Source: Candidatus Kerfeldbacteria bacterium (GTDB lineage Bacteria > Patescibacteriota > Patescibacteriia > SBBC01 > CAIJZX01). Taken from it: a stretch of DNA of 64,000 nt. The stretch lies in the NCBI GenBank assembly GCA_903825245.1, contig CAIJZX010000028.1, forward strand, positions 1,106-65,105, written 5' to 3'. A program made the translations under genes and the position numbers. Positions 1 to 25,420 of this stretch are shown in pieces. Positions within the stretch are counted from its first letter, which is position 1; every line of letters starts with the position of its first letter. The notes beneath the pieces are model-generated. The model was not told where the DNA came from and made no database searches. It saw only the letters and a program-made list of their open reading frames with translations.

Positions 1-2
1 CC

Positions 3-1487
3 AACGTCAACCTTGAACTCTTTCATTCGCAAGATTGGACGAAGTTAACGTATTTTGGGGTAAACTTTCTGGAAAAACCGCCACTGCAGTTTTGGTTAAC
101 GTACCCGCTCTTCGGAATATTCGGCGCAAACGAATTTTCGGTTCGGTTTTGGTCGGTGGCGGCCGGGATTGGTACAGCACTGTTGATTGGTCTGTGGTCA
201 TGGCGGGCATCTCAGAAAAAAATCATTGCCTTGTTGGCGCCCGCGATGTTTATCCTCGGTCGTTTTGCCCTCATTCATGCTTTTCGCACCGGCGACCTGG
301 ACGGCTTACTGACGTTTTTTGTGACGCTGGCGATGTACGGATATTGGCGAGCTAGTGCGCTTACGCACAATGGTCGGTGGATGCTGGTGTGGGGGATGGC
401 GAGCGCCGCCGCCATTATGACAAAGTCACTCGCCGGATTGATACCGGTGATTGTCGTTGGCATCGATGTACTAATCACACGAGGCTGGAAGAAAATTGGA
501 TGGGGGAATATCGCCTGGGGTGTTGGTGCGTTTGTTGTTCTGGTAACACCGTGGCACATGGTTGAAGCACAGCGCTTCGGCAATGCCTTTTGGGATAGCT
601 ATCTTGGCCGTCACGTTCTTGATCGTACCAGCGAAGCGTTATTTAATACCACGTCGTGGACATATTACTTTGGCATTATTCGCGACCGCTTCTTTCCATT
701 CAGCTATCTATTGCCAATTGCGATAATTTCCGGCGTTTGGAGAATGTGGAAACGCGACGGCACATTGGAACGACAATTACTGTTGTGGATTATCACGGTG
801 TTCGCTATTTTCACCTACATTCAAACGCGGCGTGAGTGGTATGTATTGACCCTCTATCCTGCGGCGGTTATGTTGGTCGCATTATCTATACAACAATGGT
901 GGCACGCAACGTGGAAACCGTGGGTGTATGCTGTAGCTACAGTGTGTTGCATCGCGCTCTTCGCCTACATCCCGCAGGATCACTTCTTTTTACTACTCCT
1001 GCAACGTTTTCCCGGAGTAAACGTATTGACGAAAGGAATTTGGCAAAAGAATATTGGACAGCTGATCTTTGGAGTCGCGGCGGCATTATTTGTCTTTGTC
1101 ATTTCATGGTTATTGAGAACGAAACGATTCACACTGTCGAAACGACTGATGCTGACGACGGGCGGTGTAATGTTTTTACTGGTCGGACTTTGGACGATAC
1201 AATATCTTCGTTCGCAACCAACAACACTCCCGTTGAAAACTATCGCGGCCCGCATCGCTAAGGAAAATCCGGAGAATATCCAACTCATCGGCACGAAACT
1301 CAAAAAACAACCAGCCGGCTATTTCTATATTTTGCGGCTTGATACACATAGCATCGAATATCCGCCGCAAACCGATCCGCGCACGCCATTGGTACTCACC
1401 ACAAACGAAGCTTTGAATGCCCCTTTGAATACTGAGGGGAAAGTTCTGGTGCATGCCGGGGTATTTGATTTGATAGATATGCGGTAG
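3..1487 (+). CDS. GT39/ArnT-like (PMT_2 family) membrane glycosyltransferase, 5' end truncated by window edge
   Basis: Frame 3 is open from base 3 with no stop, so the gene extends upstream of the window. The upstream in-frame translation contains ...NFLEKPPLQFWL..., the conserved first-loop EKPPL motif of ArnT/PMT glycosyltransferases. Multiple hydrophobic TM segments follow. Confidence 0.6.
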   Translation, partial: NVNLELFHSQDWTKLTYFGVNFLEKPPLQFWLTYPLFGIFGANEFSVRFWSVAAGIGTALLIGLWSWRASQKKIIALLAPAMFILGRFALIHAFRTGDLDGLLTFFVTLAMYGYWRASALTHNGRWMLVWGMASAAAIMTKSLAGLIPVIVVGIDVLITRGWKKIGWGNIAWGVGAFVVLVTPWHMVEAQRFGNAFWDSYLGRHVLDRTSEALFNTTSWTYYFGIIRDRFFPFSYLLPIAIISGVWRMWKRDGTLERQLLLWIITVFAIFTYIQTRREWYVLTLYPAAVMLVALSIQQWWHATWKPWVYAVATVCCIALFAYIPQDHFFLLLLQRFPGVNVLTKGIWQKNIGQLIFGVAAALFVFVISWLLRTKRFTLSKRLMLTTGGVMFLLVGLWTIQYLRSQPTTLPLKTIAARIAKENPENIQLIGTKLKKQPAGYFYILRLDTHSIEYPPQTDPRTPLVLTTNEALNAPLNTEGKVLVHAGVFDLIDMR

Positions 1488-1490
1488 GTC

Positions 1491-1531
1491 AATGTAGGAA
1501 AAGAAAAACTTCATCGGCTTACGATGAAGTG
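1491..1531 (-). terminator. rho-independent terminator for minus-strand gene 1519..1893
   Basis: 8-bp stem CTTCATCG/CGATGAAG (1509-1531). On the minus strand it is followed by a T-run (plus-strand aaaagaaaaa at 1491-1508). Confidence 0.4.
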
Positions 1532-1893
1532 GTTGATCGTTCGGCAGCCTTACGCTTTTCTTTATTGTAATACGCACTGAGCGTATCGGCGACATCATAT
1601 TCGATGCAGCCGTCAGGGTACACCCGACAACGCACGGGACTGCCGCTGGCGGTGCAGATATCCCACTCTCGAGGCAGAAACTCTACCTCGATGAGCTTGA
1701 CGATAGCCGAGGGCCAAAAGAGGAAGACGAGTCCGAAACAGGTACGGTCGATTTGGACGGCGTGTTTGATCATCGCTGACCACAGGGGCAGCATAGCCAG
1801 GTTGATGATCCAGAACAGAATTGTCAGGACTAGCAGCAATGTCTCTCGTCGATCTCTTCGTCCGATCCAAGGATATTTCTCAGTTTCCTTCAT
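1519..1893 (-). CDS. hypothetical small membrane protein
   Basis: 124-aa ORF with two hydrophobic segments. Its start overlaps the stop of the upstream ORF 1890..2159 (ATGA), and its own terminator sits at its stop. Confidence 0.4.
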   Translation of the reverse strand: MKETEKYPWIGRRDRRETLLLVLTILFWIINLAMLPLWSAMIKHAVQIDRTCFGLVFLFWPSAIVKLIEVEFLPREWDICTASGSPVRCRVYPDGCIEYDVADTLSAYYNKEKRKAAERSTTSS

Positions 1894-2159
1894 GGAGTCC
1901 CTTTCGGTGCCTTTGGCAGTCGTTCACTCAGGAACTTCGTGAACATCATCGCGCTCAGCAGGATGCCAAGCGAACTGAAGACAAAGTCTTCGAGATGATC
2001 AGGGCGTGAGGGAATTTTCGCCATCCAGGAATAGGCGATCAGGACGAGAAGAAAACATCCCGAAAGTATTGCCCGACGATAGAGTGGGCTCATATTTCCT
2101 CCAATGGAAAGGGCAAACTTCGATAGGACGAGTCTACAACTGGTGCCGATTTTTGTCAA
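1890..2159 (-). CDS. hypothetical small membrane protein
   Basis: 89-aa ORF with two hydrophobic segments, translationally coupled to 1519..1893. Confidence 0.3.
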   Translation of the reverse strand: MTKIGTSCRLVLSKFALSIGGNMSPLYRRAILSGCFLLVLIAYSWMAKIPSRPDHLEDFVFSSLGILLSAMMFTKFLSERLPKAPKGTP

Positions 2160-2258
2160 AAGAAAGTAAATTCATCAAGTCGCTCCTCTCCGTCGTCCCG
2201 ACATCTGTCGGGGCTTCCTCCCCATCCCCTGAGTACAGGGGAGGCGTATCTTGACGAA

Positions 2259-2285
2259 TTAGCACTCCTTGCTGTAGACTGCTAA
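2259..2285 (+). promoter_or_regulatory. CIRCE element (HrcA operator) upstream of groES-groEL
   Basis: TTAGCACTC-N9-GACTGCTAA matches the CIRCE consensus TTAGCACTC-N9-GAGTGCTAA with one mismatch. A -35-like TTGACG sits at 2251-2256 immediately upstream. Confidence 0.6.
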
Positions 2286-2462
2286 CTGTAAATACCGATG
2301 GTATTTAGAAGATTTATCGACATTTATTTCAGATTAACTAGCACCACGTCTATGTCCCGTTAGAAATTACTCGGGACAGATACTTACGACCAATCACAAT
2401 AGAGTCTAGAGAAAAACACCACTTCATCAATTTAACTTTATTTCATTAATTTCTAACGGGAT

Positions 2463-4411
<1,949 letters not shown>

Positions 4412-5145: not shown

Positions 5146-5174
5146 TTGATTTTTTCCTAAAAATATGCTATACT
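5146..5174 (+). promoter_or_regulatory. sigma70-like promoter
   Basis: TTGATT (5146-5151), 17-nt spacer, TATACT (5169-5174). The predicted TSS falls at the start of the 20-bp inverted repeat leader. Confidence 0.4.
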
Positions 5175-5287
5175 CCACCCATGCCCAGCACTACAATAAC
5201 TACCATAGCTTCATGCGGTGATTCTCGAAGTAGTACTGAGCTTCAACAGGTGATGGTCTTTCTTATTTCTTTATTGTAGTGCTGGGC

Positions 5288-5701
5288 ATGTCGGATTATC
5301 AAACGTTGCCGCCGACCCGAGCGATGATCGGGAAGTGGAGCGTTGATCGGTACATGGCGCTGATACGGCGTTGGATGTATGTCGGTGGCGGAATGGTCGC
5401 CATCCTGACACTAACATCGCAGGCGCGATGGATGACCATCGTCGTTGAAGCAGTTATTCTGCTGGCTATCGGTTGGATTGTTGTTCAACGGAGCGGCGGA
5501 AAGACGGAAAGCTTAGCCGCCGGTGCATTTGTCGGAATATTTCTCGGTCTCGCTAGTTCATTGTGTCATTACATTGTCGCACCGAACGTGGCCAACGGCA
5601 TCAGCATCATTATCGAAACACTCGTGACGGGATTGGCGGCGCCGCTCGTGGCCGTGACCGGAACGCTCATCGCAACAATTATTCATCAACAAAAAAACTA
5701 A
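5288..5701 (+). CDS. hypothetical membrane protein
   Basis: ~137-aa ORF with 4 TM helices. ATG at 5288 lies inside the 3' arm of a 20-bp perfect inverted repeat; a GTG at 5279 is also in frame. Confidence 0.5.
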   Translation: MSDYQTLPPTRAMIGKWSVDRYMALIRRWMYVGGGMVAILTLTSQARWMTIVVEAVILLAIGWIVVQRSGGKTESLAAGAFVGIFLGLASSLCHYIVAPNVANGISIIIETLVTGLAAPLVAVTGTLIATIIHQQKN

Positions 5702-5712
5702 CGCCTTACGCT

Positions 5713-8109
5713 ATGCCTACACCGCGCAGTAAACAGTTCGTCTTGTGGTTCAATGAGCTTGGAATTAAGGATGTGCCGCTCGTCGGCGGAAAGAACGCCT
5801 CGTTAGGCGAAATGTATCGGACGCTGACGCAGAAAGGCGTACGCATTCCGAACGGCTTCGCGGTTACCGCCGCATCGTATTTTTATTTCCTGAAAACGAC
5901 GGGCATCAAGCAGGAAATAAAGAAAATATTAAAAGATCTCGATACCTCAGACATGAAAAATTTGTCTGAGCGCGGTGAAAAAGTGCGGCAAACGATCCTT
6001 GATGCGGAACTACCGGCGGATTTGAAGCGCACGATCGTCACCAATTACCGAAAATTGGAAAAAGAGTTTTTCAAAGGCGTTGATGTCGCCGTTCGCTCGT
6101 CAGCGACGGCCGAAGACTTACCCGATGCATCGTTTGCTGGCCAACAGGAAACGTATTTGAATATTCGTGGGGAAGCGGATTTACTGCTGGCCGTAAAAAA
6201 GTGTTTCTCGTCGCTGTTTACGAATCGCGCTATTTCCTACCGCCACGACAAAGGATTTGATCATTTCTCGATCGGTCTCAGCGCGGCGGTGCAGAAAATG
6301 GTGCGTTCGGATAAAGCCTGTTCCGGCGTCATGTTCTCGATTGATACCGAATCTGGTTTCCGCGACGCCGTACTGTTAACCGGCTCCTATGGACTCGGTG
6401 AAAACATCGTCCTCGGCCGCGTTAATCCGGACGAGTTCTATGTCTTTAAGCCGACCTTAGCCGAAGGCAAGCAGGCGATTCTGACGCACAAGCTCGGCGA
6501 TAAGTTGATTAAGATGGTCTACACCGGCGACCATACGCATCCGACGAAAAATATTCCGGTGCCGCCGTCCGATCGCACGAAATTTATTTTGAATGATAAA
6601 GAAATCGAGCAATTAGCCAAGTGGGCGGTGGTTATCGAACAGCACTACGGTAAGCCGATGGATATGGAATGGGCGAAGGACGGCCGTTCGAAGCACCTGT
6701 TCATCGTTCAGGCTCGTCCGGAAACCGTGCACTCGCATGAAAAGAAAGACGTGCTCGAAGAGTACATTCTTGCGCCGCACAAAGCCAAGACGCTCGTAAC
6801 CGGCGCGCCGGTCGGTTCGAAAATCGGCGGCGGAAAAGCACATATCATTCTCGAAGCGGCGCAAATCAACCAATTTAAAGCCGGCGAAGTCCTGGTGACG
6901 GACATGACCGACCCGGATTGGGAGCCGATCATGAAAATCGCTTCGGCGATTGTCACTAACCGCGGCGGTCGCACCTGCCACGCCGCGATCATCGCCCGCG
7001 AGCTCGGTATTCCGGCGATGGTTGGAACGAAAAACGCCACGAAAGCCATCAAGACCGGACAAGACGTGACGGTCAGTTGTGCTGAAGGCGCAAGCGGCGC
7101 GGTCTACGAAGGACTGTTGAAGTACAAGGTCGTCACGCACAACTTGAAAGCGTTGAAGCGCCCGCCGGTGAAGATTATGATGAACATTGGTAATCCGGAT
7201 CAAGCCTTTGCCCAAAGCCTTATTCCGAACGATGGCGTCGGATTAGCCCGAGAAGAGTTCATCACGGCGTCGTGGATCGGCATTCACCCAATGGCGCTCA
7301 TTAAGTATCCGCGCTTGAAAGATAAAAAAGCCAAGAAACTGATTGATGAAAAAACAATCGGCTACAAAGACAAGACGAAATTCTACGTCGATACAATGGC
7401 GTCAGGTGTGGCCATGATTGCTGCGGCGTTCTACCCGAAAGATGTGATTTTACGCTTAGCTGACTTTAAATCGAATGAATATTCGACGCTCATTGGCGGT
7501 AAAGAATTTGAACCGGTGGAAAGTAACCCGATGATGGGTTGGCGTGGCGCAGCTCGCTACTATAGCGATGCCTATCTCGAAGCGTTTAAACTTGAATTGA
7601 AGGCGATGGTCAAGGTGCGGGAGAAAATGGGACTGACAAACTTAAAGTTGATGATTCCGATGTGCCGCACGACCGACGAAGCGCACAAGGTGCTGAAAAT
7701 TATGGCGGAGAACGGTTTAGTACAGGGAAAAAATGGACTGCAAGTTTACGTCATGGTCGAAGTTCCGTCGAATGTTATTCTGATTGAAGAATTCGCCAAA
7801 ATTTTCGACGGTTTCTCGATTGGTTCGAATGATTTAACGCAATTCACCTTAGCCGCCGACCGCGATTCGGAGCTTGTCAGTCATGTCTACAATGAACACA
7901 ATCCAGCAGCGATGTGGATGTTCTCGCACGCGATTCAAGGCGCCAAAACCGCTAAGCGAAAAATCGGATTCTGCGGCCAAGCGCCGTCTGATTATCCGGA
8001 CATTGCGCTCTTCCTGGCCGAACAAGGCATTGATTCCATCTCGCTCAACCCGGATACGGTCTTGAAGACGACGATGATGTTGAACGAGAAACTGCACCAC
8101 AAGAAATAA
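5713..8109 (+). CDS. ppsA: phosphoenolpyruvate synthase (pyruvate, water dikinase)
   Basis: N-terminus MPTPRSKQFVLWFNELGIKDVPLVGGKNASLGEM, a TNRGGRTCHAAIIARELGIPAMVG phosphohistidine domain, and a C-terminal PEP-utilising domain. The ORF track start at 5563 is an upstream in-frame extension overlapping the previous gene; ATG at 5713 is the likely start. Confidence 0.9.
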   Translation: MPTPRSKQFVLWFNELGIKDVPLVGGKNASLGEMYRTLTQKGVRIPNGFAVTAASYFYFLKTTGIKQEIKKILKDLDTSDMKNLSERGEKVRQTILDAELPADLKRTIVTNYRKLEKEFFKGVDVAVRSSATAEDLPDASFAGQQETYLNIRGEADLLLAVKKCFSSLFTNRAISYRHDKGFDHFSIGLSAAVQKMVRSDKACSGVMFSIDTESGFRDAVLLTGSYGLGENIVLGRVNPDEFYVFKPTLAEGKQAILTHKLGDKLIKMVYTGDHTHPTKNIPVPPSDRTKFILNDKEIEQLAKWAVVIEQHYGKPMDMEWAKDGRSKHLFIVQARPETVHSHEKKDVLEEYILAPHKAKTLVTGAPVGSKIGGGKAHIILEAAQINQFKAGEVLVTDMTDPDWEPIMKIASAIVTNRGGRTCHAAIIARELGIPAMVGTKNATKAIKTGQDVTVSCAEGASGAVYEGLLKYKVVTHNLKALKRPPVKIMMNIGNPDQAFAQSLIPNDGVGLAREEFITASWIGIHPMALIKYPRLKDKKAKKLIDEKTIGYKDKTKFYVDTMASGVAMIAAAFYPKDVILRLADFKSNEYSTLIGGKEFEPVESNPMMGWRGAARYYSDAYLEAFKLELKAMVKVREKMGLTNLKLMIPMCRTTDEAHKVLKIMAENGLVQGKNGLQVYVMVEVPSNVILIEEFAKIFDGFSIGSNDLTQFTLAADRDSELVSHVYNEHNPAAMWMFSHAIQGAKTAKRKIGFCGQAPSDYPDIALFLAEQGIDSISLNPDTVLKTTMMLNEKLHHKK

Positions 8110-11399: not shown

Positions 11400-11487
11400 G
11401 GAGGGTTCGCATAGTGGCCTAGTGCATACGCTTGGAAAGCGTACATACCGCAAGGTATCGAGAGTTCGAATCTCTCACCCTCCGCCA
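11400..11487 (+). tRNA. tRNA-Ser (anticodon GGA), CCA encoded
   Basis: Acceptor stem GGAGGGT/ACCCTCC. Anticodon stem-loop TACGC-TTGGAAA-GCGTA gives anticodon GGA. Long variable arm (ATACC/GGTAT). T-arm GAGAG-TTCGAAT-CTCTC, discriminator G, then CCA. Confidence 0.85.
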
Positions 11488-11558
11488 ATACAATCTTTTA
11501 TCGGAGCCGACCCACGTGGCTCAAGCGGTAGCAGGTTGCATTGGCACATATATACCCA

Positions 11559-11598
11559 ACCCCTTGTCGGAGTACCCGACGAGGGGTTCTATGTTTTT
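11559..11598 (+). terminator. terminator after tRNA-Ser
   Basis: 12-bp stem ACCCCTTGTCGG/CCGACGAGGGGT (one G-U pair) with loop agtac, followed by tctatgttttt. Confidence 0.5.
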
Positions 11599-11654
11599 AC
11601 TTCATTTAGATAAAAGGTGACCACTGCGCCTAAAGTGGAGTGGCGTCAATGTTC

Positions 11655-11697
11655 GAATAAGAAAAATACCCCACGAGCTAATTGCTCTTGTGGGGTA
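11655..11697 (-). terminator. minus-strand rho-independent terminator
   Basis: 11-bp stem TACCCCACGAG/CTCTTGTGGGGTA (one G-U pair), followed on the minus strand by TTTTTCTTATTC. It sits ~190 nt downstream of the kinase gene stop at 11885. Confidence 0.4.
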
Positions 11698-11884
11698 TGA
11701 GGGAACCGACTGTTGGAGACCTGTTAAGCTCAGATGCAAGGTCCTTCGCTGATGATGCCACATCGCTTGCAGGGTAGCCGTGCGACATTGAGCTTCACCG
11801 TTCCTGAGGCAGGATCCCAGTCGTGGCCGAGTACTGCGCAGACGAAGCTGCGCCACAACTGCCTGAGAAAGTGCATTGCGCCTC

Positions 11885-12496
11885 CTATCCTTGACTCTCA
11901 AGTGGAAGAGCTGCGACGACCTCAGCGATGGTGTGCCAGACCTCATCGAGATCGGCGTAGCGGGAGTAATCCTTGCCGCGCCGGTCGATCGTGAGAACTG
12001 GGTAGTGTCTCGCAAGCGATTGGATCTCCTCCTGAACGCTGATCATCCGACTCACGACCATCTCGTGTTGTTCGAACTCGCGCGCACGACGGGCAATAAC
12101 CGACCGTAGCTCGGCTTCATCCGTCAGCAGGACGACACAGAGATCGGGCGTCACAGAGCGCAACCGATCTGCCTGAAGATGTACTTCAGGCGAATCGTGC
12201 CGTGCTGCGTCAACACGCAAGTATGCTTCGTGGGTGAGTGGACCGGAGTCGATGAAGCAGTGAATACCAGGTGTACCCAGCCGCATCGCGCACTCGCCTG
12301 CGCGAACACATCGTTCGGTGAACCAGGTATTCCGCTTGGATACGAGTGTGTGCGAGGCGAACGAATTAGTGACCCATTCCGGGAAGACCCCTACTTCACC
12401 TTCGGGGATGACGGGACATCGTGTGAGTGCTGCGAGTTGCGCTGACAGAAACGACTTACCAACGCCGCCGGTACCGTCGATTGCAACGATGGCCAT
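11885..12496 (-). CDS. P-loop nucleoside/nucleotide kinase (dNK/TMK-like fold)
   Basis: Walker A at the N-terminus (AIDGTGGVGKSF) and an Arg-rich LID-like segment (IARRAREFEQ). Clearly GC-richer than the surrounding genome. Confidence 0.55.
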   Translation of the reverse strand: MAIVAIDGTGGVGKSFLSAQLAALTRCPVIPEGEVGVFPEWVTNSFASHTLVSKRNTWFTERCVRAGECAMRLGTPGIHCFIDSGPLTHEAYLRVDAARHDSPEVHLQADRLRSVTPDLCVVLLTDEAELRSVIARRAREFEQHEMVVSRMISVQEEIQSLARHYPVLTIDRRGKDYSRYADLDEVWHTIAEVVAALPLESQG

Positions 12497-12693
12497 GGTG
12501 TCTCCTCTAAAGGGTTAACCTGCGCTAATAGACAATGTGTTGGACAAAGTAGAAGCCACAGCACTGTGGCTGGGTTTTTGTGCATGTAATGAACGTCTTA
12601 CTAAGACCCTAGCAAGCTGGCGCGTAGTGTCAATGGCACACCGTTGGAGGTTGGCTGTTTAAGTGTCCTGCAATAAGTTACAATGCAGGAACC

Positions 12694-13605
12694 ATGGAGC
12701 TTCCGGAAAACATCAAAACCCTCTACCGCCACTGGTCATATCACATCCAAGAGGAATTGTCTCCAATTGGTGATCGACCCTTGATTGATGAGTCTCTTTT
12801 TCGTGACATGTGTTCTTTTATTGATGAGAGAATGTTAATTTGGCAGAAAAAAGTTTCCCTCCAACCTGAACCCTATTCGACGGATCCTATTCTTGCTAAA
12901 TACCGCTTCTGCAATATCTTCCGTGAGCTGGATAAACAAACCATCTTTTTTCATACTCTCCTCAACCCATTGCGAGATGATTTTTCGCTGTGGCTGTTGA
13001 ATATGTTTTATTGCCGGATGGTGGCACGTCCAGAAACTATTGAATCCGTAGGGCTACTCTCTTTTGACACAATGAAGAATGAGGAAGTATTTGGACGCTT
13101 GATATCTTCGTCCCGGCCTCGATTCGGCACCCCGTATGTTTTCCCTATTAGCGTCATCCAGAAAAGCCCAACGCCGACCCGCGAACGATTTATTGCCGAA
13201 TACCTGCCGTCGGTGATGAAGGTGATAGCGGCAGAAATACAAACGTGGAAGAAAAAATCCGTATACGATGGCCTACAAAGGATCATTCCGCTGTTTGGTA
13301 AAAACCTCTACTTCCTCTGGACAGAAGTGCTGATAGATACGGCCTACCAGTTTCCAACATACATCAATCTCTTTGAGCGTTTTCCTATTGGTCCGGGATC
13401 AGCTCCAACATTAAAAAGACTGAACCCTGCTATAGATCTGTCCATTCTTGTACAGCAGCTGACTGATGTGCCCGTGAATACGGCTCTACAGTTTAATAGC
13501 TTGCCGCTTAAACTGTCTGCAGAAAACTGGGAAGGAGTCGGTTGTGAGTTTCGGAAATACACCAACCTAAGATCGGGTATTGGTCGGAAACGCCTGTACC
13601 GTTAG
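12694..13605 (+). CDS. hypothetical protein; possibly alpha-glutamyl/putrescinyl-thymine pyrophosphorylase (aGPT-Pplase)-like (unverified)
   Basis: 303-aa soluble ORF, divergently paired with the P-loop kinase. Contains ...DPILAKYRFCNIFRELDKQT.... The assignment comes from recalled family patterns and gene context only, not from a search. Confidence 0.3.
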   Translation: MELPENIKTLYRHWSYHIQEELSPIGDRPLIDESLFRDMCSFIDERMLIWQKKVSLQPEPYSTDPILAKYRFCNIFRELDKQTIFFHTLLNPLRDDFSLWLLNMFYCRMVARPETIESVGLLSFDTMKNEEVFGRLISSSRPRFGTPYVFPISVIQKSPTPTRERFIAEYLPSVMKVIAAEIQTWKKKSVYDGLQRIIPLFGKNLYFLWTEVLIDTAYQFPTYINLFERFPIGPGSAPTLKRLNPAIDLSILVQQLTDVPVNTALQFNSLPLKLSAENWEGVGCEFRKYTNLRSGIGRKRLYR

Positions 13606-13639: not shown

Positions 13640-13951
13640 TCACGACATGCTCAGGTCAATGTTCTTGGGTTGCAGCACCAAGCGTTTCGGTGCCATGGTT
13701 TCGATTTTCTGCAGCCGCTCACGCAGTTGCGCGAGTGCGATCTGAATGTTGTCGAGATGGCCAGCCGCTTCACTCAAGCGGCGGCGCCACTCGGCCGGAT
13801 CATCGAACAGTCTGGCATTGAACACCAACTTGGCAGCAGTCTCAAGATCTTCGATCGGTCCAGTGCGCGCTGTCACCGAATTCCCAGCATGCATTGGCGA
13901 GTTCTTTCGAGACGCTCGGCGGGACATCGCGGTAGCGAGTCTCATCCTCAT
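13640..13951 (-). CDS. hypothetical protein (doubtful)
   Basis: 103-aa ORF in a GC-rich ~500-bp gap. No RBS and an RS-rich N-terminus. The region may be non-coding. Confidence 0.2.
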   Translation of the reverse strand: MRMRLATAMSRRASRKNSPMHAGNSVTARTGPIEDLETAAKLVFNARLFDDPAEWRRRLSEAAGHLDNIQIALAQLRERLQKIETMAPKRLVLQPKNIDLSMS

Positions 13952-14103
13952 CGGGTTCAGCCATGGAAGAAGTACCCCCCTTTCTTACTCGACATCGAAA
14001 TCGCCACCACCGACCTTCATCCCAGGCTCGACAAGCTCCTTATGGATATAAACCGGATCAATACGAATGCACCGTGGCGCTTTTGGATCGTGGCCATGTC
14101 CTC

Positions 14104-14222
14104 AGACCCCGACCCACATGCCTCAAATCGCCCTCTAGAAAAATCGTCAGAAAACCCTTATAATGCTTGTGTGAGTGTGGTACCTAACCCATGTGTCCCG
14201 CCAATAGAACTAAGTATCGGAC
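14104..14222 (+). repeat. promoter-bearing repeat, copy A
   Basis: gaccccgacccacatgcctcaaatcgccctctagaaaaatcgtcagaaaacccttataatgcttgtgtgagtgtggtacctaac... is near-identical to copy B (15914-16032). It embeds TAGAAA-N17-TATAAT (14136-14164). Confidence 0.6.
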
Positions 14223-14308
14223 AAATCACTTTCCTATGAGCATGAAGCAACCCGGGTGCCTTGTCCCCATCGCATTATAAAACGAATAATGAAGCTTTCG
14301 GATATCAG

Positions 14309-14953: not shown

Positions 14954-15054
14954 GTATTGGCGATGTAGTTGCAGGCACAAAACAAATTTATAGAAATAAT
15001 CTTCGAGGGATCGTCTTCTACGTCTCAGCTACCGACCTACTCTCCTTAACATCC

Positions 15055-15148
15055 TCCCTAGGGCGAACCTCATAAAACCCTTATAATGCTTACGCGGGTA
15101 GGATACCTAACTCGAGTGTCTCGCCAAGAGAACTTAGTATCGGGTGAC
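15055..15148 (+). repeat. promoter-bearing repeat, copy C (diverged)
   Basis: cataaaacccttataatgcttacgcgggtaggatacctaactcgagtgtctcgccaagagaacttagtatcgg aligns with copies A and B (TATAAT at 15082-15087; conserved ACCTAAC...GCCAA...TTAGTATCG). Confidence 0.5.
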
Positions 15149-15205
15149 CCATATGCCTAGAATCAAAGTCAAAATGTGGGAGGCACAAATAGGCAGAATT
15201 TGACT

Positions 15206-15856
15206 ATGCAAGTAGCCCAACTCCACAAAAAATTCGATGCTCTACAGAAAACATTCGGCCACGGTGAACTAAATCCGATATACGGCGCTGGATGTGTACA
15301 ACATCCAAGGTTAATGTTGGTATTTATGAATCCAACTGGAAAGAATGTTGCATCAAATACCAATTGGTCTGGACTTCGTGCCCCGTGGCTCGGAACAAAA
15401 AACATCTGGAAACTTTTACACGAGATAAAAGTTGTGTCAGAAGAAAGTTTTTCTGCAACCCAGACAAAAAAGTCAAACGAGTGGACACCCTTGTTTTGTT
15501 CTAATTTGTATAAGGAAATTGATTCGCACGAGGTGTACATTACAAACTTAGCCAAATGTACTCAATTGGACGCACGACCATTATCAAATTTGGTCTTCCA
15601 AAAATATCTAGAGTTATTCAAACAGGAAACACTCCTGATCCATCCAAAGAAGATAATTACCTTTGGCAACCAAGTAAGTTCGATTATTGTTGGAGAAAAT
15701 ATCTCAGTGGGAAAGTATGCTGGTAATCGGCATGAAGATGTGAAAATTGGGAGCAAGATTTTCCCAGTTTATCCGACGTGGTATCCAGTTGGGCAGGGCA
15801 TGAGAAACCTCCCATTAGCTGCGAAACGAATTAAGAAAGTTCTCTCCACCAAATAA
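15206..15856 (+). CDS. uracil-DNA glycosylase superfamily protein (family-4-like layout, divergent motif A)
   Basis: EVYITNLAKCTQ matches UDG motif EVYITNxVKCRP. LLIHPKKIITFGNQV and KIFPVYPTWYP correspond to the family-4 UDG C-terminal motifs. Motif A is FMNPTG instead of GEAPG. Confidence 0.55.
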   Translation: MQVAQLHKKFDALQKTFGHGELNPIYGAGCVQHPRLMLVFMNPTGKNVASNTNWSGLRAPWLGTKNIWKLLHEIKVVSEESFSATQTKKSNEWTPLFCSNLYKEIDSHEVYITNLAKCTQLDARPLSNLVFQKYLELFKQETLLIHPKKIITFGNQVSSIIVGENISVGKYAGNRHEDVKIGSKIFPVYPTWYPVGQGMRNLPLAAKRIKKVLSTK

Positions 15857-15913
15857 TCTAAAAAGGGTACCGAACAATTGAGACATCCTTAAGAAGTGCC
15901 TCATTTTGGTTTT

Positions 15914-16032
15914 AGACCCCGACCCACATGCCTCAAATCGCCCCCTAGAAAAATCGTCAGAAAACCCTTATAATGCTTGTGTGAGTGTGGTACCTAACTC
16001 GAATGTCCCGCCAATAAAATTTAGTATCGCGC
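15914..16032 (+). repeat. promoter-bearing repeat, copy B
   Basis: Near-identical to copy A over ~95 bp (TAGAAA 15946-15951, TATAAT 15969-15974), then diverges. It is preceded by the tail motif gagacatccttaagaagtgcctca that is shared with copy D. Confidence 0.6.
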
Positions 16033-16058
16033 AACTCATCCAGGCAGTTACTTTATCC

Positions 16059-16742
16059 ATGAATCCAGAAAACACGAAAATCGAATCTCGCGAAATCCCG
16101 GAGATTGGTTTGCGTATCGAATTTTCACCACAACATGATGCCGAAATGGTTCGTGATAATCTCGATCCGGAAGAAATAGAATGGAATCGTACAATGGGAT
16201 ATCCATGCAGATTACCGAATAAAGTTGAAGAAGCTGTTTCGCGCGGAACCATTCCAACAGTTGAAGAAATTATTGAAGCGGTGACAGCCGAGTACCAGTC
16301 GGCGAGATACGAGCAACAATCTCTGGTCTTTACCGAGGCGTGGAATGAACAACGGGATGGATTCATAAAAAACCTATCGACCCTTGGTGTACCATTGCCA
16401 AACGAATATATCCTCCGATTGACCAGGTATGGTACCGGCGGAATGTACAAACTCCCGAATGAGATTGAGGTGATTGTGAACGACCCGATTACGACCGATT
16501 TCCACACACCCTTTCATGAGATGGTTCATTTGACCATCGAAGATCTGATTGTCGAGCACCATATTGGTCACTGGACCAAGGAACGATTGGTTGATCTTAT
16601 TCTCAATATGTTCGTTCCGGAAAAGAAATATCTCCAACAAGACCCGCCACACACAAAGCAAATCGATCAACTTTTCGAGCAGTATTTTCCTGACGTGAAG
16701 CGCATTATTGAAGAAATAACTACATTGGGGAGAGGTGCTTGA
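16059..16742 (+). CDS. YgjP/DUF45-like zincin (putative nucleotide pyrophosphatase/metal-dependent hydrolase)
   Basis: TRYGTGGMY...FHEMVHLTIEDLIVEHHIGHW matches the DUF45/YgjP pattern (RWGSC...HELxHLxExNHSxxFW). ATG at 16059; the upstream in-frame extension in the ORF track is a translation of repeat B. Confidence 0.5.
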   Translation: MNPENTKIESREIPEIGLRIEFSPQHDAEMVRDNLDPEEIEWNRTMGYPCRLPNKVEEAVSRGTIPTVEEIIEAVTAEYQSARYEQQSLVFTEAWNEQRDGFIKNLSTLGVPLPNEYILRLTRYGTGGMYKLPNEIEVIVNDPITTDFHTPFHEMVHLTIEDLIVEHHIGHWTKERLVDLILNMFVPEKKYLQQDPPHTKQIDQLFEQYFPDVKRIIEEITTLGRGA

Positions 16743-16757
16743 TTATACTACAGTTCT

Positions 16758-16823
16758 ATGGCCGAACTCCCACTACAACCCACCCTCGTCGATTTCCAAG
16801 CCCAACTTCTTAAATCTCGTTAA
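16758..16823 (+). pseudogene. relic 5' fragment of a mazG-like gene (22 codons then stop)
   Basis: ATG at 16758 encodes MAELPLQPTLVDFQAQLLKSR*. It is ~80% nt-identical over ~48 nt to the start of the intact mazG at 17202 (MPELSPQPTLADFQAH...). Confidence 0.5.
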
Positions 16824-16842
16824 TTCCATTATTTTCTTTGGT

Positions 16843-17193
16843 ATGAAAATCACTCGAAAAGAATCTCATATTGAGGATAAGCATGGAATTAAACTTTGGG
16901 TTTATCCTGTTGGTCGGAAAGAGGCTGGGGTGGTTTATGTTGAAGTTGAGGAAGGACACTTCCAAGAGTTTTTTGATAAGAAAAGTACTTTTATTTACTA
17001 CATTATTGAAGGCCAAGGAACTTTTTTTCTTGATGGCAAAGAAACTACCGTTAAAGAGGCGGATTTGGTCGTTATTCCGCCCATGACAAAAATTTACTAT
17101 TTTGGGAAAATGAGAATGACCCTAACGACGGTTCCCGCCTGGGAGCCGGAAAATGAAGTTCACGTCAGGTTCATTGAAAAACCAAGCAACTAA
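16843..17193 (+). CDS. cupin domain protein
   Basis: 116 aa. GVVYVEVEEGHFQEF...YIIEGQGTFFLDGKETTVKEADLVVIPP is a typical cupin two-motif beta-barrel. Confidence 0.55.
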   Translation: MKITRKESHIEDKHGIKLWVYPVGRKEAGVVYVEVEEGHFQEFFDKKSTFIYYIIEGQGTFFLDGKETTVKEADLVVIPPMTKIYYFGKMRMTLTTVPAWEPENEVHVRFIEKPSN

Positions 17194-17201
17194 TACTTTT
17201 T

Positions 17202-17534
17202 ATGCCCGAACTTTCGCCACAGCCAACCCTCGCCGATTTCCAAGCCCACATCAAGGCAGTTTGCACTGAACGCGGTTGGGACAAAAATTCCTATTCGGAA
17301 ATATTTTTATTGTTTACCGAAGAAGTTGGAGAACTCGCGAAATCAATTCGAAATGAAGCGAAATTACATGCCCAAGTCGATCCGAAGAAACGCTTTGAGC
17401 TGGAAGAAGAGTTCGCTGATGTTTTTAACTACCTTCTGGACTTAGCCAATTACTTTAACGTTGATCTCGAAGCGGCATATCGGAAGAAACATGAGCATAA
17501 TACAACAAGAGCTTGGAAAGCGAAAGGGGAATAA
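17202..17534 (+). CDS. MazG-like nucleotide pyrophosphohydrolase
   Basis: 110 aa. TLADFQAHIKAVCTERGWDKNS...EEVGELAKSIRNE...EEEFADVFNYLLDLANYF is the MazG/NTP-PPase EExxE helical-bundle pattern. Confidence 0.7.
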   Translation: MPELSPQPTLADFQAHIKAVCTERGWDKNSYSEIFLLFTEEVGELAKSIRNEAKLHAQVDPKKRFELEEEFADVFNYLLDLANYFNVDLEAAYRKKHEHNTTRAWKAKGE

Positions 17535-17540
17535 CACTCT

Positions 17541-18320
17541 ATGAGCACACAGCGTCGAACCGTCGTTTCCTACAATCGTTATGCAGGATCATGGGCCTCG
17601 TTGATGCGGTCCGGCGGTAATACTTCGCATCGGTACCTCGAGAAACCGGCGATGTTCCGTGCCTTGCCGAGCCTTCGCGGTAAAACGGTGTTGTGTGTCG
17701 GTTGCGGGACTGGCGAAGAGTGCGAATTATTGATGAAGCTCGGCGCTAAGCGCGTCGTTGGTACAGATATTTCCAAAAACCTCATTCGCGAAGCGAAACG
17801 CGCTTTTCCCGCGATCGAATTTTACACGAGGGATATGGAGCGACTGCGATTGCCGGCGCATGCATTCGACGTGGTCTACTCGAGTTTGACCATGCACTAC
17901 GTGCCGAGCTGGAAGCAAACCCTGGCCCAAGTCAAGAAGGTGCTGAAACCCGGCGGACAGTTTGTTTTTTCAACGCACCATCCAGTCCGTTGGGGCGCTG
18001 AGACGAAAGAAACGAAGCACCACAAGTCACACATTCTCGGGTATGAAAAAATAGACAAGGGCAAGGCAATTGTGTACGGCGATTATCTGAATGGCCACTG
18101 GATTCACGATCGTTGGTTCGGCGATTTCGATGTCACGTATTATCATCGGCCGTTATCGCTCTTGATACGCGATATTTTGGAAAGCGGACTTGAGCTTATC
18201 GATTTTCAAGAGCCAAAACCGCTAGCAACTGTCCGCCGCGAGAACCCGCAATACTGGAAGATCCATCAGAAAATCCCGCTCTTCATGATCTTCGTCTTGC
18301 GAAAAAAGGAGTCAAAATAA
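17541..18320 (+). CDS. class I SAM-dependent methyltransferase
   Basis: Motif I VLCVGCGTGEE, post-I acidic residue (VVGTDIS), and motif LKPGGQFVFS. Confidence 0.75.
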   Translation: MSTQRRTVVSYNRYAGSWASLMRSGGNTSHRYLEKPAMFRALPSLRGKTVLCVGCGTGEECELLMKLGAKRVVGTDISKNLIREAKRAFPAIEFYTRDMERLRLPAHAFDVVYSSLTMHYVPSWKQTLAQVKKVLKPGGQFVFSTHHPVRWGAETKETKHHKSHILGYEKIDKGKAIVYGDYLNGHWIHDRWFGDFDVTYYHRPLSLLIRDILESGLELIDFQEPKPLATVRRENPQYWKIHQKIPLFMIFVLRKKESK

Positions 18321-18387
18321 ATAGTCTTAATCGACTTCGCATTTTGTTCGGTTTTTGGTATACTGCAGAAATAACGCACAATAAATT

Positions 18388-18852
18388 ATGAAACTACGCA
18401 ACCACGCCGTCCCGGCGGTGTACCTCGTGATGCGAAAGGATAACAAGATTCTCTTTATGCGCCGGCAAGGCAGCGGTTTTTATGACGGTTGGTATTCGCT
18501 TCCGGCCGGCCACGTTGAAGCCGGTGAATTGCCAAAGGTGGGATTAGCGCGAGAAATGGAAGAAGAACTGGGGATAGGTATCGACGTGAACGCGCTCCGG
18601 CTCGTACATACGCTGTACCGGACGAAGAGCGATGAATCCGGCGATCGGGTGGACATGTTTTTTGACGTCCCGTCGTGGCAGGGCGAGCCAACGATTATGG
18701 AGCCGCACAAGTGTGATGATTTGCAGTGGTGCTCGATGCAAGAATTACCGGACAAAGTGATGCCGCACGTACGGCGAATATTGGAGGCCATCGATCGAGG
18801 CGAGACGTTCTCCGAGTTCGATTTGCCGACAATGTTGTCGTTTCCGAAATAA
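18388..18852 (+). CDS. Nudix hydrolase
   Basis: Nudix box GHVEAGELPKVGLAREMEEELGI. Confidence 0.8.
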   Translation: MKLRNHAVPAVYLVMRKDNKILFMRRQGSGFYDGWYSLPAGHVEAGELPKVGLAREMEEELGIGIDVNALRLVHTLYRTKSDESGDRVDMFFDVPSWQGEPTIMEPHKCDDLQWCSMQELPDKVMPHVRRILEAIDRGETFSEFDLPTMLSFPK

Positions 18853-18887
18853 TTCGCTTATTTAATTGTTTGTGGTAGGCTAGAACC

Positions 18888-19358
18888 ATGGCACACCTTC
18901 ACGACAAAATAGATTTCACGACCGAAGTCTTCATTGTTTTTCAGGGCAAAGTATTGTTGCGGAAGCACGATAAATACAAGATTTGGCTGAGTGTGGGTGG
19001 GCATATTGAACTTGATGAAGACCCGATACAGGCCGCACTGCGTGAAGTGAAAGAAGAAGTTGGGCTTGATGTTCAACTCTTTGGTCAACCGATCAGTGTC
19101 AGCAATGAAGGAGAAAACGGCTATCACGAGCTACTCCCGCCGATGTTTATGAACCGACACCATATTTCTGATACGCATGATCATATAACACTGACGTATT
19201 TTGCCAAAGCGACAACTAGTACTATTCGAAATCAAGAAGACGAGCATAGCGACGAGCTGAGATGGTTTACTGCGGAAGAACTTTCAGATTCGAAGTTTGG
19301 CATTCGGGATAGTGTTCAGAAATACGCATTGGCCGCCTTACAAACAATTCAAGGATAA
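18888..19358 (+). CDS. Nudix hydrolase
   Basis: Nudix box GGHIELDEDPIQAALREVKEEVGL. Confidence 0.75.
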   Translation: MAHLHDKIDFTTEVFIVFQGKVLLRKHDKYKIWLSVGGHIELDEDPIQAALREVKEEVGLDVQLFGQPISVSNEGENGYHELLPPMFMNRHHISDTHDHITLTYFAKATTSTIRNQEDEHSDELRWFTAEELSDSKFGIRDSVQKYALAALQTIQG

Positions 19359-19361
19359 ACC

Positions 19362-19910
19362 ATGTCAGAAGAAATGATCGACGTGCTCGATACACAGGGG
19401 GAAAAAACCGGACAAATATTGGAATTAAAAGAAGTCCATCGGCAAGGACTTTGGCATCGTACGGCGCATATTTGGGTTGTGACCTCAAAAGGTAATATAC
19501 TTTTTCAACAGCGCTCGCCGATCCTTGATGTCTACCCTAACTGTTGGGATATTTCCGCGTCCGGCCACATTCGAACTGGTCAAACGAGCCTTGAAGGGGC
19601 TATAGCAGAAACACAAGAAGAAATCGGATTATCCTTAAAACCCAACTCGTTAGAATTTCTGACTACACTGCAGCATGAAAGCGAACATAATCAAGGCACA
19701 AACATTAATAGAGAATTTCAGGATGTGTATTTGGTAACACAAGACGTGTCATTGAATGAATTAACAATACTCAATACCGAGGTCAGCAATCTGCAATTTA
19801 TACATTGGTCGAAATTACGTCGACTAGTTGACAATCATGACCAGGGGTTTGCCCCACGTGGTCAAGAATACCAACTACTATTCTCAATATTGCAGCAACG
19901 TTATCCATAA
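19362..19910 (+). CDS. Nudix hydrolase (IDI-like clade)
   Basis: Nudix box SGHIRTGQTSLEGAIAETQEEIGL. The N-terminal LWHRTAHIWV...LFQQRS...YPNCWD resembles the isopentenyl-diphosphate-isomerase-like Nudix subfamily. Confidence 0.7.
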   Translation: MSEEMIDVLDTQGEKTGQILELKEVHRQGLWHRTAHIWVVTSKGNILFQQRSPILDVYPNCWDISASGHIRTGQTSLEGAIAETQEEIGLSLKPNSLEFLTTLQHESEHNQGTNINREFQDVYLVTQDVSLNELTILNTEVSNLQFIHWSKLRRLVDNHDQGFAPRGQEYQLLFSILQQRYP

Positions 19911-23250: not shown

Positions 23251-23324
23251 GGCGCTGAAAAGACTGACCGTTGACGAGAATAGCATTTTTCCTTATACTC
23301 CTCCTGTTCTTGAACACTGTTGAT

Positions 23325-23396
23325 TCCCAGGTAGCTCAATGGTAGAGCAATCGGCTGTTAACCGATTGGTTCTCGGTTCGAATCCGAGCCTGGGAG
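23325..23396 (+). tRNA. tRNA-Asn (anticodon GTT), copy 1
   Basis: Acceptor TCCCAGG/CCTGGGA, D-arm GCTC-AATGGTA-GAGC, anticodon arm ATCGG-CTGTTAA-CCGAT (GTT), T-arm CTCGG-TTCGAAT-CCGAG. No encoded CCA. Confidence 0.85.
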
Positions 23397-23586
23397 GTTA
23401 GAGGAGAAGTTGCCCGGCGACCGACCCCTATCCAAACCGCCCCACTGCCTTAGCCAAATTCTCTCGTCCCTCACATCGTCGAATTTTCCAAAAGCGTCAA
23501 AGATGAGGAGACTAGGCACGATATTCGAACCAGTCCATTTCCTGTAGAATAGTAGAATCTTTGAAAACATTTTGAGCGCTATTGAT

Positions 23587-23661
23587 TCCCAGGTAGCTCA
23601 GCGGTAGAGCAATCGGCTGTTAACCGATTGGTCGTCGGTTCGAATCCGACCCTGGGAGCCA
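23587..23661 (+). tRNA. tRNA-Asn (anticodon GTT), copy 2, CCA encoded
   Basis: Same acceptor and anticodon arms as copy 1 with diverged D-loop (agcgg) and T-stem (GTCGG/CCGAC). It shares the 12-nt leader ttgattcccagg. Confidence 0.85.
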
Positions 23662-25307: not shown

Positions 25308-25420
25308 ATCCACGACCCACCCGCTTCAACTCCTCTCTTGAAAAATCGTCCGAAAAACCCTTAAAAGTCTATTTTGAGACAGTCCTGAAACAGCCTTAAG
25401 AAGTGTCTCAAGTTTCTCAA
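25308..25420 (+). repeat. promoter-bearing repeat, copy D (permuted core/tail order)
   Basis: gatccacgacccacccgcttcaactcctctcttgaaaaatcgtccgaaaaacccttaaaagtct aligns with copies A and B (~75% identity). It embeds TTGAAA-N17-TTAAAA (25338-25366) and is followed by the tail motif gagaca...ccttaagaagtgtctca. Confidence 0.5.

Follow-up and report, generated by a model that had tools for sequence, protein, structure and literature searches.

In phages that hypermodify thymidine, a kinase by itself phosphorylates 5-hydroxymethyldeoxyuridine (5-hmdU) in DNA, as Lee et al. showed in 2021 (PMC8989533). The same work identified the so-called clade-2 protein as an amino-acid:DNA transferase (AADT) with an essential Cys and Glu (PMC8989533), so that the name under which the proteins had been known, pyrophosphorylase, is outdated. 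Transferase activity on 5-phosphomethyl-deoxyuridine in DNA has been shown for clade 2 (PMC8989533, PMC11472151), and in the clade-2 enzyme PUGT Cys247 was assigned as the nucleophile on C6 (PMC11472151). Clade-1 proteins, for which no such activity has been demonstrated, are encoded in thymidine-hypermodifying phage groups such as M6, PaMx11, SP10 and phiW-14. In PaMx11- and M6-like phages the genes follow each other in the order 5-HMUDK (the DNA kinase for 5-hmdU), clade-1 protein (Pfam family PF18723), thymidylate synthase (TS)-like dUMP hydroxymethylase and HD protein, and in SP10 gp186 the kinase family PF18748 (residues 35-193) and PF18723 (313-598) are fused in one polypeptide. Here we analyze a 64,000-nucleotide stretch of the Candidatus Kerfeldbacteria contig CAIJZX010000028.1 (the window), in which a gene for a 303-aa PF18723 protein (12694-13605, plus strand) stands divergent from a gene for a 203-aa P-loop kinase (11885-12496, minus strand). 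Judged by its sequence, the 303-aa protein is an orthologue of the phage clade-1 proteins that is found throughout the candidate phyla radiation (CPR) and forms a stand-alone branch. The two genes are probably independent of each other and no dedicated two-component system: a likely salvage kinase beside a presumably Cys-dependent clade-1 orthologue.

The 303-aa gene belongs to a known and already auto-annotated family. PF18723 (HMUDK_hel, for the helical domain of the 5-hmdU DNA kinase; the older name is aGPT-Pplase clade 1) is its single Pfam match, at 61.4 bits (cut-off 25, E = 1.2e-16), and covers residues 34-291 of the protein and positions 2-273 of the 281 in the profile. PHROG 2396 matches as well (E = 3.8e-22); none of the PADLOC defence models does, and a sequence search of the PDB with the CPR-clade profile returned chance matches only. 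In tblastn against phages the protein matches genes labelled 'aGPT-pyrophosphorylase clade 1' or 'aGPT-Pplase1 domain-containing protein', and phage PF18723 members in GenBank and UniProt also bear the full label 'alpha-glutamyl/putrescinyl thymine pyrophosphorylase clade 1'. The two names denote the same family, because PF18723 is matched at 190 bits by the phage PAC5 protein labelled aGPT-Pplase1, and the protein of PAC5 labelled aGPT-Pplase2 matches PF18724 (ADDT). An earlier note on this DNA had suspected the second gene of belonging to the aGPT-Pplase family, and the full-length PF18723 match, together with the aGPT-Pplase1 labels of the phage members, bears this out.

Like the phage clade-1 proteins (M6 gp55, PaMx11 gp50, the C-terminal half of SP10 gp186, phiW-14 and phiRSL1), the 303-aa protein matches the family profile over its full length, shares their predicted fold and measures about 300 aa, although its identity to them is only 21-28%. 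In an alignment of 58 diverse family members, PaMx11 gp50 and the PAC5 homologue included, residues R46, F72, N74, R77, D80, C284, E285 and K288 are invariant. The protein thus carries both family motifs at verified positions: F-x-N-x-x-R-x-x-D within the N-terminal segment DPILAKYRFCNIFRELDKQT (residues 64-83, nt 12883-12942, plus strand), where PaMx11 gp50 has DPTLQMYRFCNIHREDDKVT, and C-E-x-x-K within the C-terminal segment ENWEGVGCEFRK (nt 13522-13557, plus strand). At the latter place the C-E-F-x-K-Y string is common to the phage and the window, reading EHTLCEFDKY in PaMx11 gp50 and ENWEGVGCEFRKY in the 303-aa protein.

The predicted structure tells the same story. The AlphaFold (AF2) model is mostly helical (pLDDT 89.9, pTM 0.89), and a Foldseek search of BFVD returned the SP10 5-hmdU DNA kinase, gp186, as its top match (E = 2e-8, TMq 0.68, probability 1.00). 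Probability was also 1.00 for the HMUDK_hel proteins of phiRSL1 and phiW-14 and for a 'Pplase1 clade 1' protein; Lucky3 was matched too, and TM was 0.60-0.68 across the best six matches. Proteins with the AADT domain of clade 2 followed at E = 3.5e-4, again with probability 1.00. The clade-2 AADTs (PF18724; PaMx11 gp46, which is PUGT, PDB 8Z2N; M6 gp51; ViI gp247) thus resemble the 303-aa protein, if more weakly, in their predicted models and share with it an E-x3-C near the C-terminus and a central motif rich in G-x-G/F. Unlike them, it has no significant sequence match to PF18724, and the glycine-binding residues of PUGT, Trp146 and Lys150, could not be mapped onto it. One family member from the representative search, P0230 (515 aa), has its PF18723 domain (46-315) fused to a Dam-type DNA N6-adenine methyltransferase domain (351-474), suggesting DNA as the target of at least some clade-1 proteins.

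The branch to which the 303-aa protein belongs is spread widely over the CPR. Homologues form 554 clusters, and the top 120 of these are uniform: all are 295-331 aa long, 59-75% identical to the query and bear PF18723 only, and wherever their source is named it is Patescibacteria, Parcubacteria or Paceibacteria. Genome matches, at 41-63% identity, extend to Nomura-, Parcu-, Sacchari-, Gracili-, Dojka-, Shapiro- and Zambryskiibacteria and to WWE3; the orthologues in Saccharibacteria MAGs are 50-56% identical. With such relatives, the CPR-like host that had been surmised from the DNA stands. An exhaustive search of representatives put some 20 clusters (50% level) below 1e-30; the remaining family is far more distant (997 representatives at E <= 1e-3, most of those listed being about 280-330 aa), and its members are usually stand-alone proteins of about 300 aa. 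The best that IMG/VR offers is only 23-28% full-length identity and, since nothing closer is found there, the CPR clade of PF18723 is cellular. It differs from phage clade 1 in its far tighter sequence conservation, in its chromosomal housekeeping context, where a TS-family gene is rarely near, and in some 33 additional residues at the N-terminus, which the clade conserves. This extension, residues 1-33 of our protein, lies outside the Pfam model and outside the phage relatives compared, and holds residues that are invariant across the CPR alignment. The CPR proteins are also basic (median pI 9.1).

The kinase next door is of another kind than the phage enzymes. To judge from its model (AF2, pLDDT 85.7), it is most likely a small (deoxy)nucleoside-salvage kinase resembling the deoxynucleoside kinases (dNK): the top Foldseek matches in the PDB are the deoxyadenosine kinases (dAK) 8puu and 2jat, deoxycytidine kinase (dCK) and thymidylate kinase (TMK), with TM about 0.75 (range 0.63-0.78) and E = 1e-9, at 14-19% identity to these solved structures. 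The dNK/TMK-like character proposed in the earlier note thus holds. With dAK, dCK and TMK (PF01712, PF02223) the kinase shares the fold, a length of about 200 aa, the Walker A motif (GTGGVGKS, residues 8-15, nt 12452-12475, minus strand) and the Arg-rich LID of the form R-x3-R-R-x-R-E (RSVIARRAREFE, residues 131-142, nt 12071-12106, minus strand), the positions of both motifs being verified. Unlike them it reaches no curated Pfam cut-off except that of AAA_28, and this one marginally (27.7 bits against 27). Where a D-R-Y/H or E-R-S motif would stand it reads D83-S84-G, so its substrate is not readable from the sequence. PHROG gave weak 'thymidylate kinase' matches, and PADLOC a weak candidate match only (PDC-M51B, 21 bits).

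Phage 5-HMUDKs are, like the window kinase, small P-loop kinases that adjoin a PF18723 gene. They match PF18748 (HMUDK_HMUD1), as our controls did (PAC5 kinase 65 bits, SP10 gp186 83 bits, the kinase of locus L110 73 bits), whereas the window kinase gave no match to this family at E <= 0.1, and its BLASTP alignment with the PAC5 and PaMx11 5-HMUDKs was limited to the Walker A region. Its structural neighbours are dNK and TMK and its family is cellular, from CPR and DPANN. Together, the dNK/TMK-like predicted fold and the missing PF18748 match argue that the kinase is not a 5-hmdU DNA kinase. Five relatives were found by single-sequence search and 68 clusters by profile search; several members are labelled deoxyadenosine/deoxycytidine kinase (JGI) and four carry a precomputed PF01712 assignment. 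The family (the window kinase, P0125, P0278-P0340) is sparse. Both groups that share it consist of ultrasmall episymbionts: CPR bacteria, here Komeilibacteria and Paceibacterota, and DPANN archaea, here Woese- and Nanoarchaeota.

Is the pair conserved? In a first set, a kinase homologue was present at none of 16 PF18723 loci and a PF18723 gene at none of three kinase loci. With a second set of 80 further PF18723 loci from metagenomes added, the kinase family adjoins the PF18723 gene at one of 94 loci, and we reject conserved synteny of the two genes. The kinase's closest relative (locus L029, 76% nucleotide identity) sits after a uvrB-like gene, the kinase ORF alone matching the window. At locus L030 its neighbours are groES on one side and a PMT gene on the other, two genes that are themselves syntenic with window positions 1-2900; the kinase is thus located elsewhere in a related genome. 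It is an unrelated neighbour of the salvage type, whose position varies among relatives.

The other partners that accompany clade 1 in phages are scarce as well. In the 64-kb window, tblastn with three phage hydroxymethylases detected no dUMP hydroxymethylase (TET/JBP were not specifically searched), tblastn with PaMx11 gp46 and the PAC5 AADT detected no clade-2 AADT, and no 5-HMUDK was detected either. Across loci the contrast is stark. An HMUDK-type kinase is near the PF18723 gene at 64 of 80 viral loci and at none of 90 CPR loci, and the same comparison gives 71/80 against 5/90 for a TS-like gene, 38/80 against 0/90 for an AADT, 48/80 against 2/90 for an HD protein and 24/80 against 0/90 for Nmad5. 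This difference between viral and CPR neighbourhoods leaves a hypermodification module unsupported.

What, then, surrounds the CPR genes? Neighbour counts were taken raw across loci, regardless of kinship among them, and the most frequent neighbour family reaches at most 9 of 98 loci. Housekeeping genes (LeuRS, ArgRS, L11, NusG, trigger factor) are met most often, and most CPR loci have no neighbour that is a kinase or belongs to nucleotide metabolism. Among those that do, seven have a dCTP-deaminase-like gene (dcd) next to or close to the PF18723 gene on the same strand; it may be upstream or downstream, and the PF18723 proteins of the lineages concerned are mutually just 57-66% identical. 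It lies directly beside the PF18723 gene at L040, L043/L045, L055 and L056, and at L046 with one small ORF between; the order varies, and all of these Paceibacteria-like contigs have the genes between ArgRS/LeuRS and L11/NusG. At L055 the order is canonical ThyA, PF18723, Dcd, and at L043/L045 a Tmk gene is divergent from PF18723, which repeats the window's geometry, with Dcd following. Other P-loop genes are found at L035 (AAA_28) and at L044 (AAA_33/Zeta-like, 4 bp downstream); a YfbR-like HD 5'-deoxynucleotidase is the neighbour at L041, and NUDIX or HIT genes at several CPR loci. This context points to housekeeping of deoxypyrimidines or DNA bases, although the signal is modest.

The TS-family neighbours at L055 and L106 had been candidates for hydroxymethylases. 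We reject them as canonical ThyA, since they are about 63-64% identical to E. coli ThyA and the L055 gene scores 415 bits on the Pfam model Thymidylat_synt. Of the TS neighbours at L055, L106 and L013, the one at L013 alone is divergent. It is a TS-superfamily gene (5160-5966, minus strand, on the Candidatus Gracilibacteria chromosome OY782391.1) whose transcription diverges from that of the PF18723 gene. The DRTG and PCH motifs are missing from it, and on ThyA models, which have cut-offs of 108-327, it reaches 40-54 bits; phage hydroxymethylases likewise fall far below these cut-offs. It shares about 26-28% identity with phage dUMP hydroxymethylase-like proteins, compared with about 20% for ThyA, and may be a cellular pyrimidine hydroxymethylase.

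Two further arrangements deserve mention. In a Shapirobacteria-like clade (L017, L018, L084, L085, L087-L089, L092) the PF18723 gene is part of a conserved string, with a PNPOx-like gene 1 bp upstream and, following it, an unknown 180-aa protein and an MGMT/ATL-type DNA_binding_1 protein. In the window itself, the region 3' of the PF18723 gene (15176-19910) is an array of genes for nucleotide and DNA 'sanitation', encoding a uracil-DNA glycosylase (UDG)-family protein, a cupin, a MazG-like pyrophosphohydrolase, an S-adenosylmethionine-dependent methyltransferase and three consecutive NUDIX proteins, after which come dnaG and rpoD; locus L028 (PF18723, NUDIX, NUDIX, UDG, MGMT) resembles this array.

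For the chemistry of the 303-aa protein we propose a working model, built by analogy with PUGT. Cys284, in the motif E280-x3-C284-E285, would add to C6 of uracil or of a 5-substituted uracil in the manner of PUGT Cys247, and Glu280 and Glu285 would assist this covalent catalysis. R46, N74, R77, D80 and K288 may bind the nucleotide together with its phosphate. As substrate we envisage a residue of the deoxyuridine or thymidine type, in DNA or free as a nucleotide, and the role would lie in thymidylate/uracil housekeeping instead of phage-style hypermodification. The analogy comes from two profile methods, which independently align the E-x3-C motif with PUGT E243-x3-C247 and the central G-x-G/F region with PUGT FGPWIGFK, the order of the two regions agreeing. 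Going further, we envision that the stand-alone clade might be a near-universal CPR housekeeping enzyme that acts on derivatives of uracil or thymine by covalent Cys-C6 chemistry, either at an unrecognized step of thymidylate salvage or synthesis or in installing or removing a 5-substituted uracil in CPR DNA or RNA; this wider proposal is speculative and we regard it as unlikely in its full form.

Several points weigh against this picture. The profile alignments to clade 2 are each non-significant: hhalign, which set the family profile against a clade-2 alignment of two sequences, gave a probability of 2% with a motif alignment that is plausible and not significant, and hmmsearch gave E = 0.017 with two targets. 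The top Foldseek match in the PDB is indeed PUGT (8z2n), and it is weak (E = 1.4, TM 0.36). M6 gp55, a clade-1 protein, was dispensable in the in-vitro reconstitution (PMC8989533), and the literature found assigns no activity to any clade-1 member; any clade-1 chemistry is therefore an extrapolation from clade 2. As for the separateness of the two genes, partner genes could lie beyond the 64 kb visible, and small P-loop kinases (Tmk, AAA_28, AAA_33) adjoin PF18723 in three other contexts, so the window kinase may not be there wholly by accident. Finally, the contextual signal is modest because under 10% of loci have metabolic neighbours, and among these loci some are interrelated.

The explanation that the earlier note had put forward is a chromosomal module for thymine hypermodification, in which the kinase would phosphorylate 5-hydroxymethyl-uracil in DNA and the 303-aa protein would substitute the phosphate. 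Phages provide its precedent, with P-loop kinase and PF18723 adjacent (PaMx11 gp49/gp50, PAC5, L107, L110) or fused as in SP10 gp186, and the window genes are divergent neighbours 197 bp apart. Yet the kinase looks like dNK/TMK in predicted fold and fails to match PF18748, which the phage kinases do; the pairing recurs at a single one of the 94 loci and relatives of the kinase are placed elsewhere; hydroxymethylase and AADT were not detected in the window, and HMUDK and AADT are near none of the 90 CPR loci. Moreover, group transfer is carried out by clade 2 and not by clade 1 (PMC8989533). We thus consider the module highly improbable; a looser reading of the locus as a deoxynucleotide-metabolism neighbourhood is plausible. 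A weaker form of coupling would have the kinase and the PF18723 protein serve one route of deoxypyrimidine salvage or thymidylate supply, the kinase providing or consuming a nucleotide and different lineages recruiting different kinases. Four unrelated P-loop kinases do lie beside CPR PF18723 genes (the AAA_28 proteins of the window and of L035, the AAA_33/Zeta-like one of L044, and the Tmk of L043/L045), dcd, thyA and the YfbR-like HD gene are neighbours at other loci, and the UDG, MazG and NUDIX array follows downstream in the window. Against this, the kinases are not homologous to each other, they amount to about 5 of roughly 90 loci, any enrichment over chance being modest, and most loci have neither a kinase nor a nucleotide-metabolism neighbour; such coupling seems to us doubtful.

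It is also conceivable, if a good deal short of probable, that the 303-aa protein has no part in nucleotide pools at all and is a DNA-repair or DNA-binding factor akin to helix-hairpin-helix (HhH) glycosylases, which would recognize or excise damaged pyrimidines or be non-catalytic. A DNA-glycosylase-like HhH fold has been ascribed to the aGPT-Pplase families (PMC5889632, PMC8989533, PMC13458397), and neighbours such as UDG (window, L028, L094), MGMT/ATL (seven loci), AP endonuclease (L001, L027) and RecG (about 2.5 kb away in L002 and L011) would suit such a factor, as would the basic character of the CPR clade and the Dam fusion of one family member. These repair-gene neighbours are, however, as rare as the metabolic ones, no glycosylase is among the Foldseek matches in the PDB, and the invariant Cys-Glu aligns with the covalent-catalysis motif of clade 2, unlike the usual Asp/Lys chemistry of glycosylases. 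We judge a repair factor quite unlikely, and retain as the probable explanation two independent genes, a salvage-type kinase and a Cys-dependent clade-1 orthologue.

What is new here is a cellular branch of clade 1, 41-75% identical across Patescibacteria, with no phage partner kinase or AADT near 90 loci. Its partner-less state, and its embedding among thyA, tmk and dcd in some lineages, provide an independent handle on clade-1 function and hint at an unexplored side of pyrimidine metabolism, or of DNA chemistry, among organisms reliant on nucleotide salvage. If the Cys-C6 enzyme proposed for CPR is real, its role would also reveal that of clade 1 in the hypermodifying phages. For annotation, two cautions follow: names such as 'nucleotide kinase domain-containing' or 'DNA base hypermodification protein' should not be taken as functions, and a P-loop kinase beside a PF18723 gene should not be presumed to be a 5-hmdU DNA kinase.

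The layout of the locus is simple. A tRNA-Ser with anticodon GGA (11400-11487, plus strand; ARAGORN, 53.2 bits on the Rfam tRNA model) precedes the pair, and this tRNA, the minus-strand kinase with its two motifs and the divergent 303-aa ORF are all present where the earlier note had placed them. The tRNA is a landmark only and lies outside any module. On its 3' side a consensus scan found a terminator-like hairpin, a pattern match only, with a 13-bp stem and a T run (11558-11588, plus strand), and 11600-11884 is gene-free, although the note had counted it with the pair. An AGGAG ribosome-binding site, read from the sequence, lies 7 nt before the kinase ATG on the minus strand. The divergent intergenic region (12497-12693, 197 bp) contains a palindromic hairpin at 12554-12571, and a consensus scan of it found no sigma-70-like promoter. 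Kinase and 303-aa ORF are real genes, because both have homologues elsewhere and confident AlphaFold models.

The pair had been called GC-rich. This is true of the kinase gene (0.578), and not of the 303-aa gene, whose 0.451 is under the window mean of 0.498. Gene GC across the window averages 0.491 (sd 0.058) and other genes reach 0.579-0.583; at about 1.5 sd over the mean, the kinase marks no striking GC island. An att-like repeat of the tRNA-Ser 3' end was searched for and none was found, and no integrase was seen among the genes scanned from 10.2 to 25.3 kb. An integrated island at tRNA-Ser is rejected, given the missing tRNA 3'-end repeat and a raised GC that is confined to the kinase and matched by other window genes.

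Beyond the pair, two overlapping ORFs, 13640-13951 (minus strand) and 13670-14239 (plus strand), are convergent to the PF18723 gene; the former encodes 103 aa, has a GC of 0.571 and is without a family match. Direct repeats of about 125 nt (14104-14228, 15027-15151 and 15914-16038, with a partial copy at 25335-25359) are 69-91% identical, and each stands just upstream of one of the consecutive genes for a 230-aa ORF, the UDG-family protein and a 278-aa ORF. The first copy holds a promoter-like TAGAAA-17-TATAAT, whose TATAAT is kept in the aligned copies. The repeats look like a recurring promoter or 5' leader, from which the array takes its cassette-like appearance; a structured RNA was considered and rejected, as RNAalifold found essentially no consensus structure and Rfam no match. 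Further downstream, a tandem pair of tRNA-Asn(GTT) genes (23324-23397 and 23587-23661) lies 262 bp apart and is 88% identical, flanks included.

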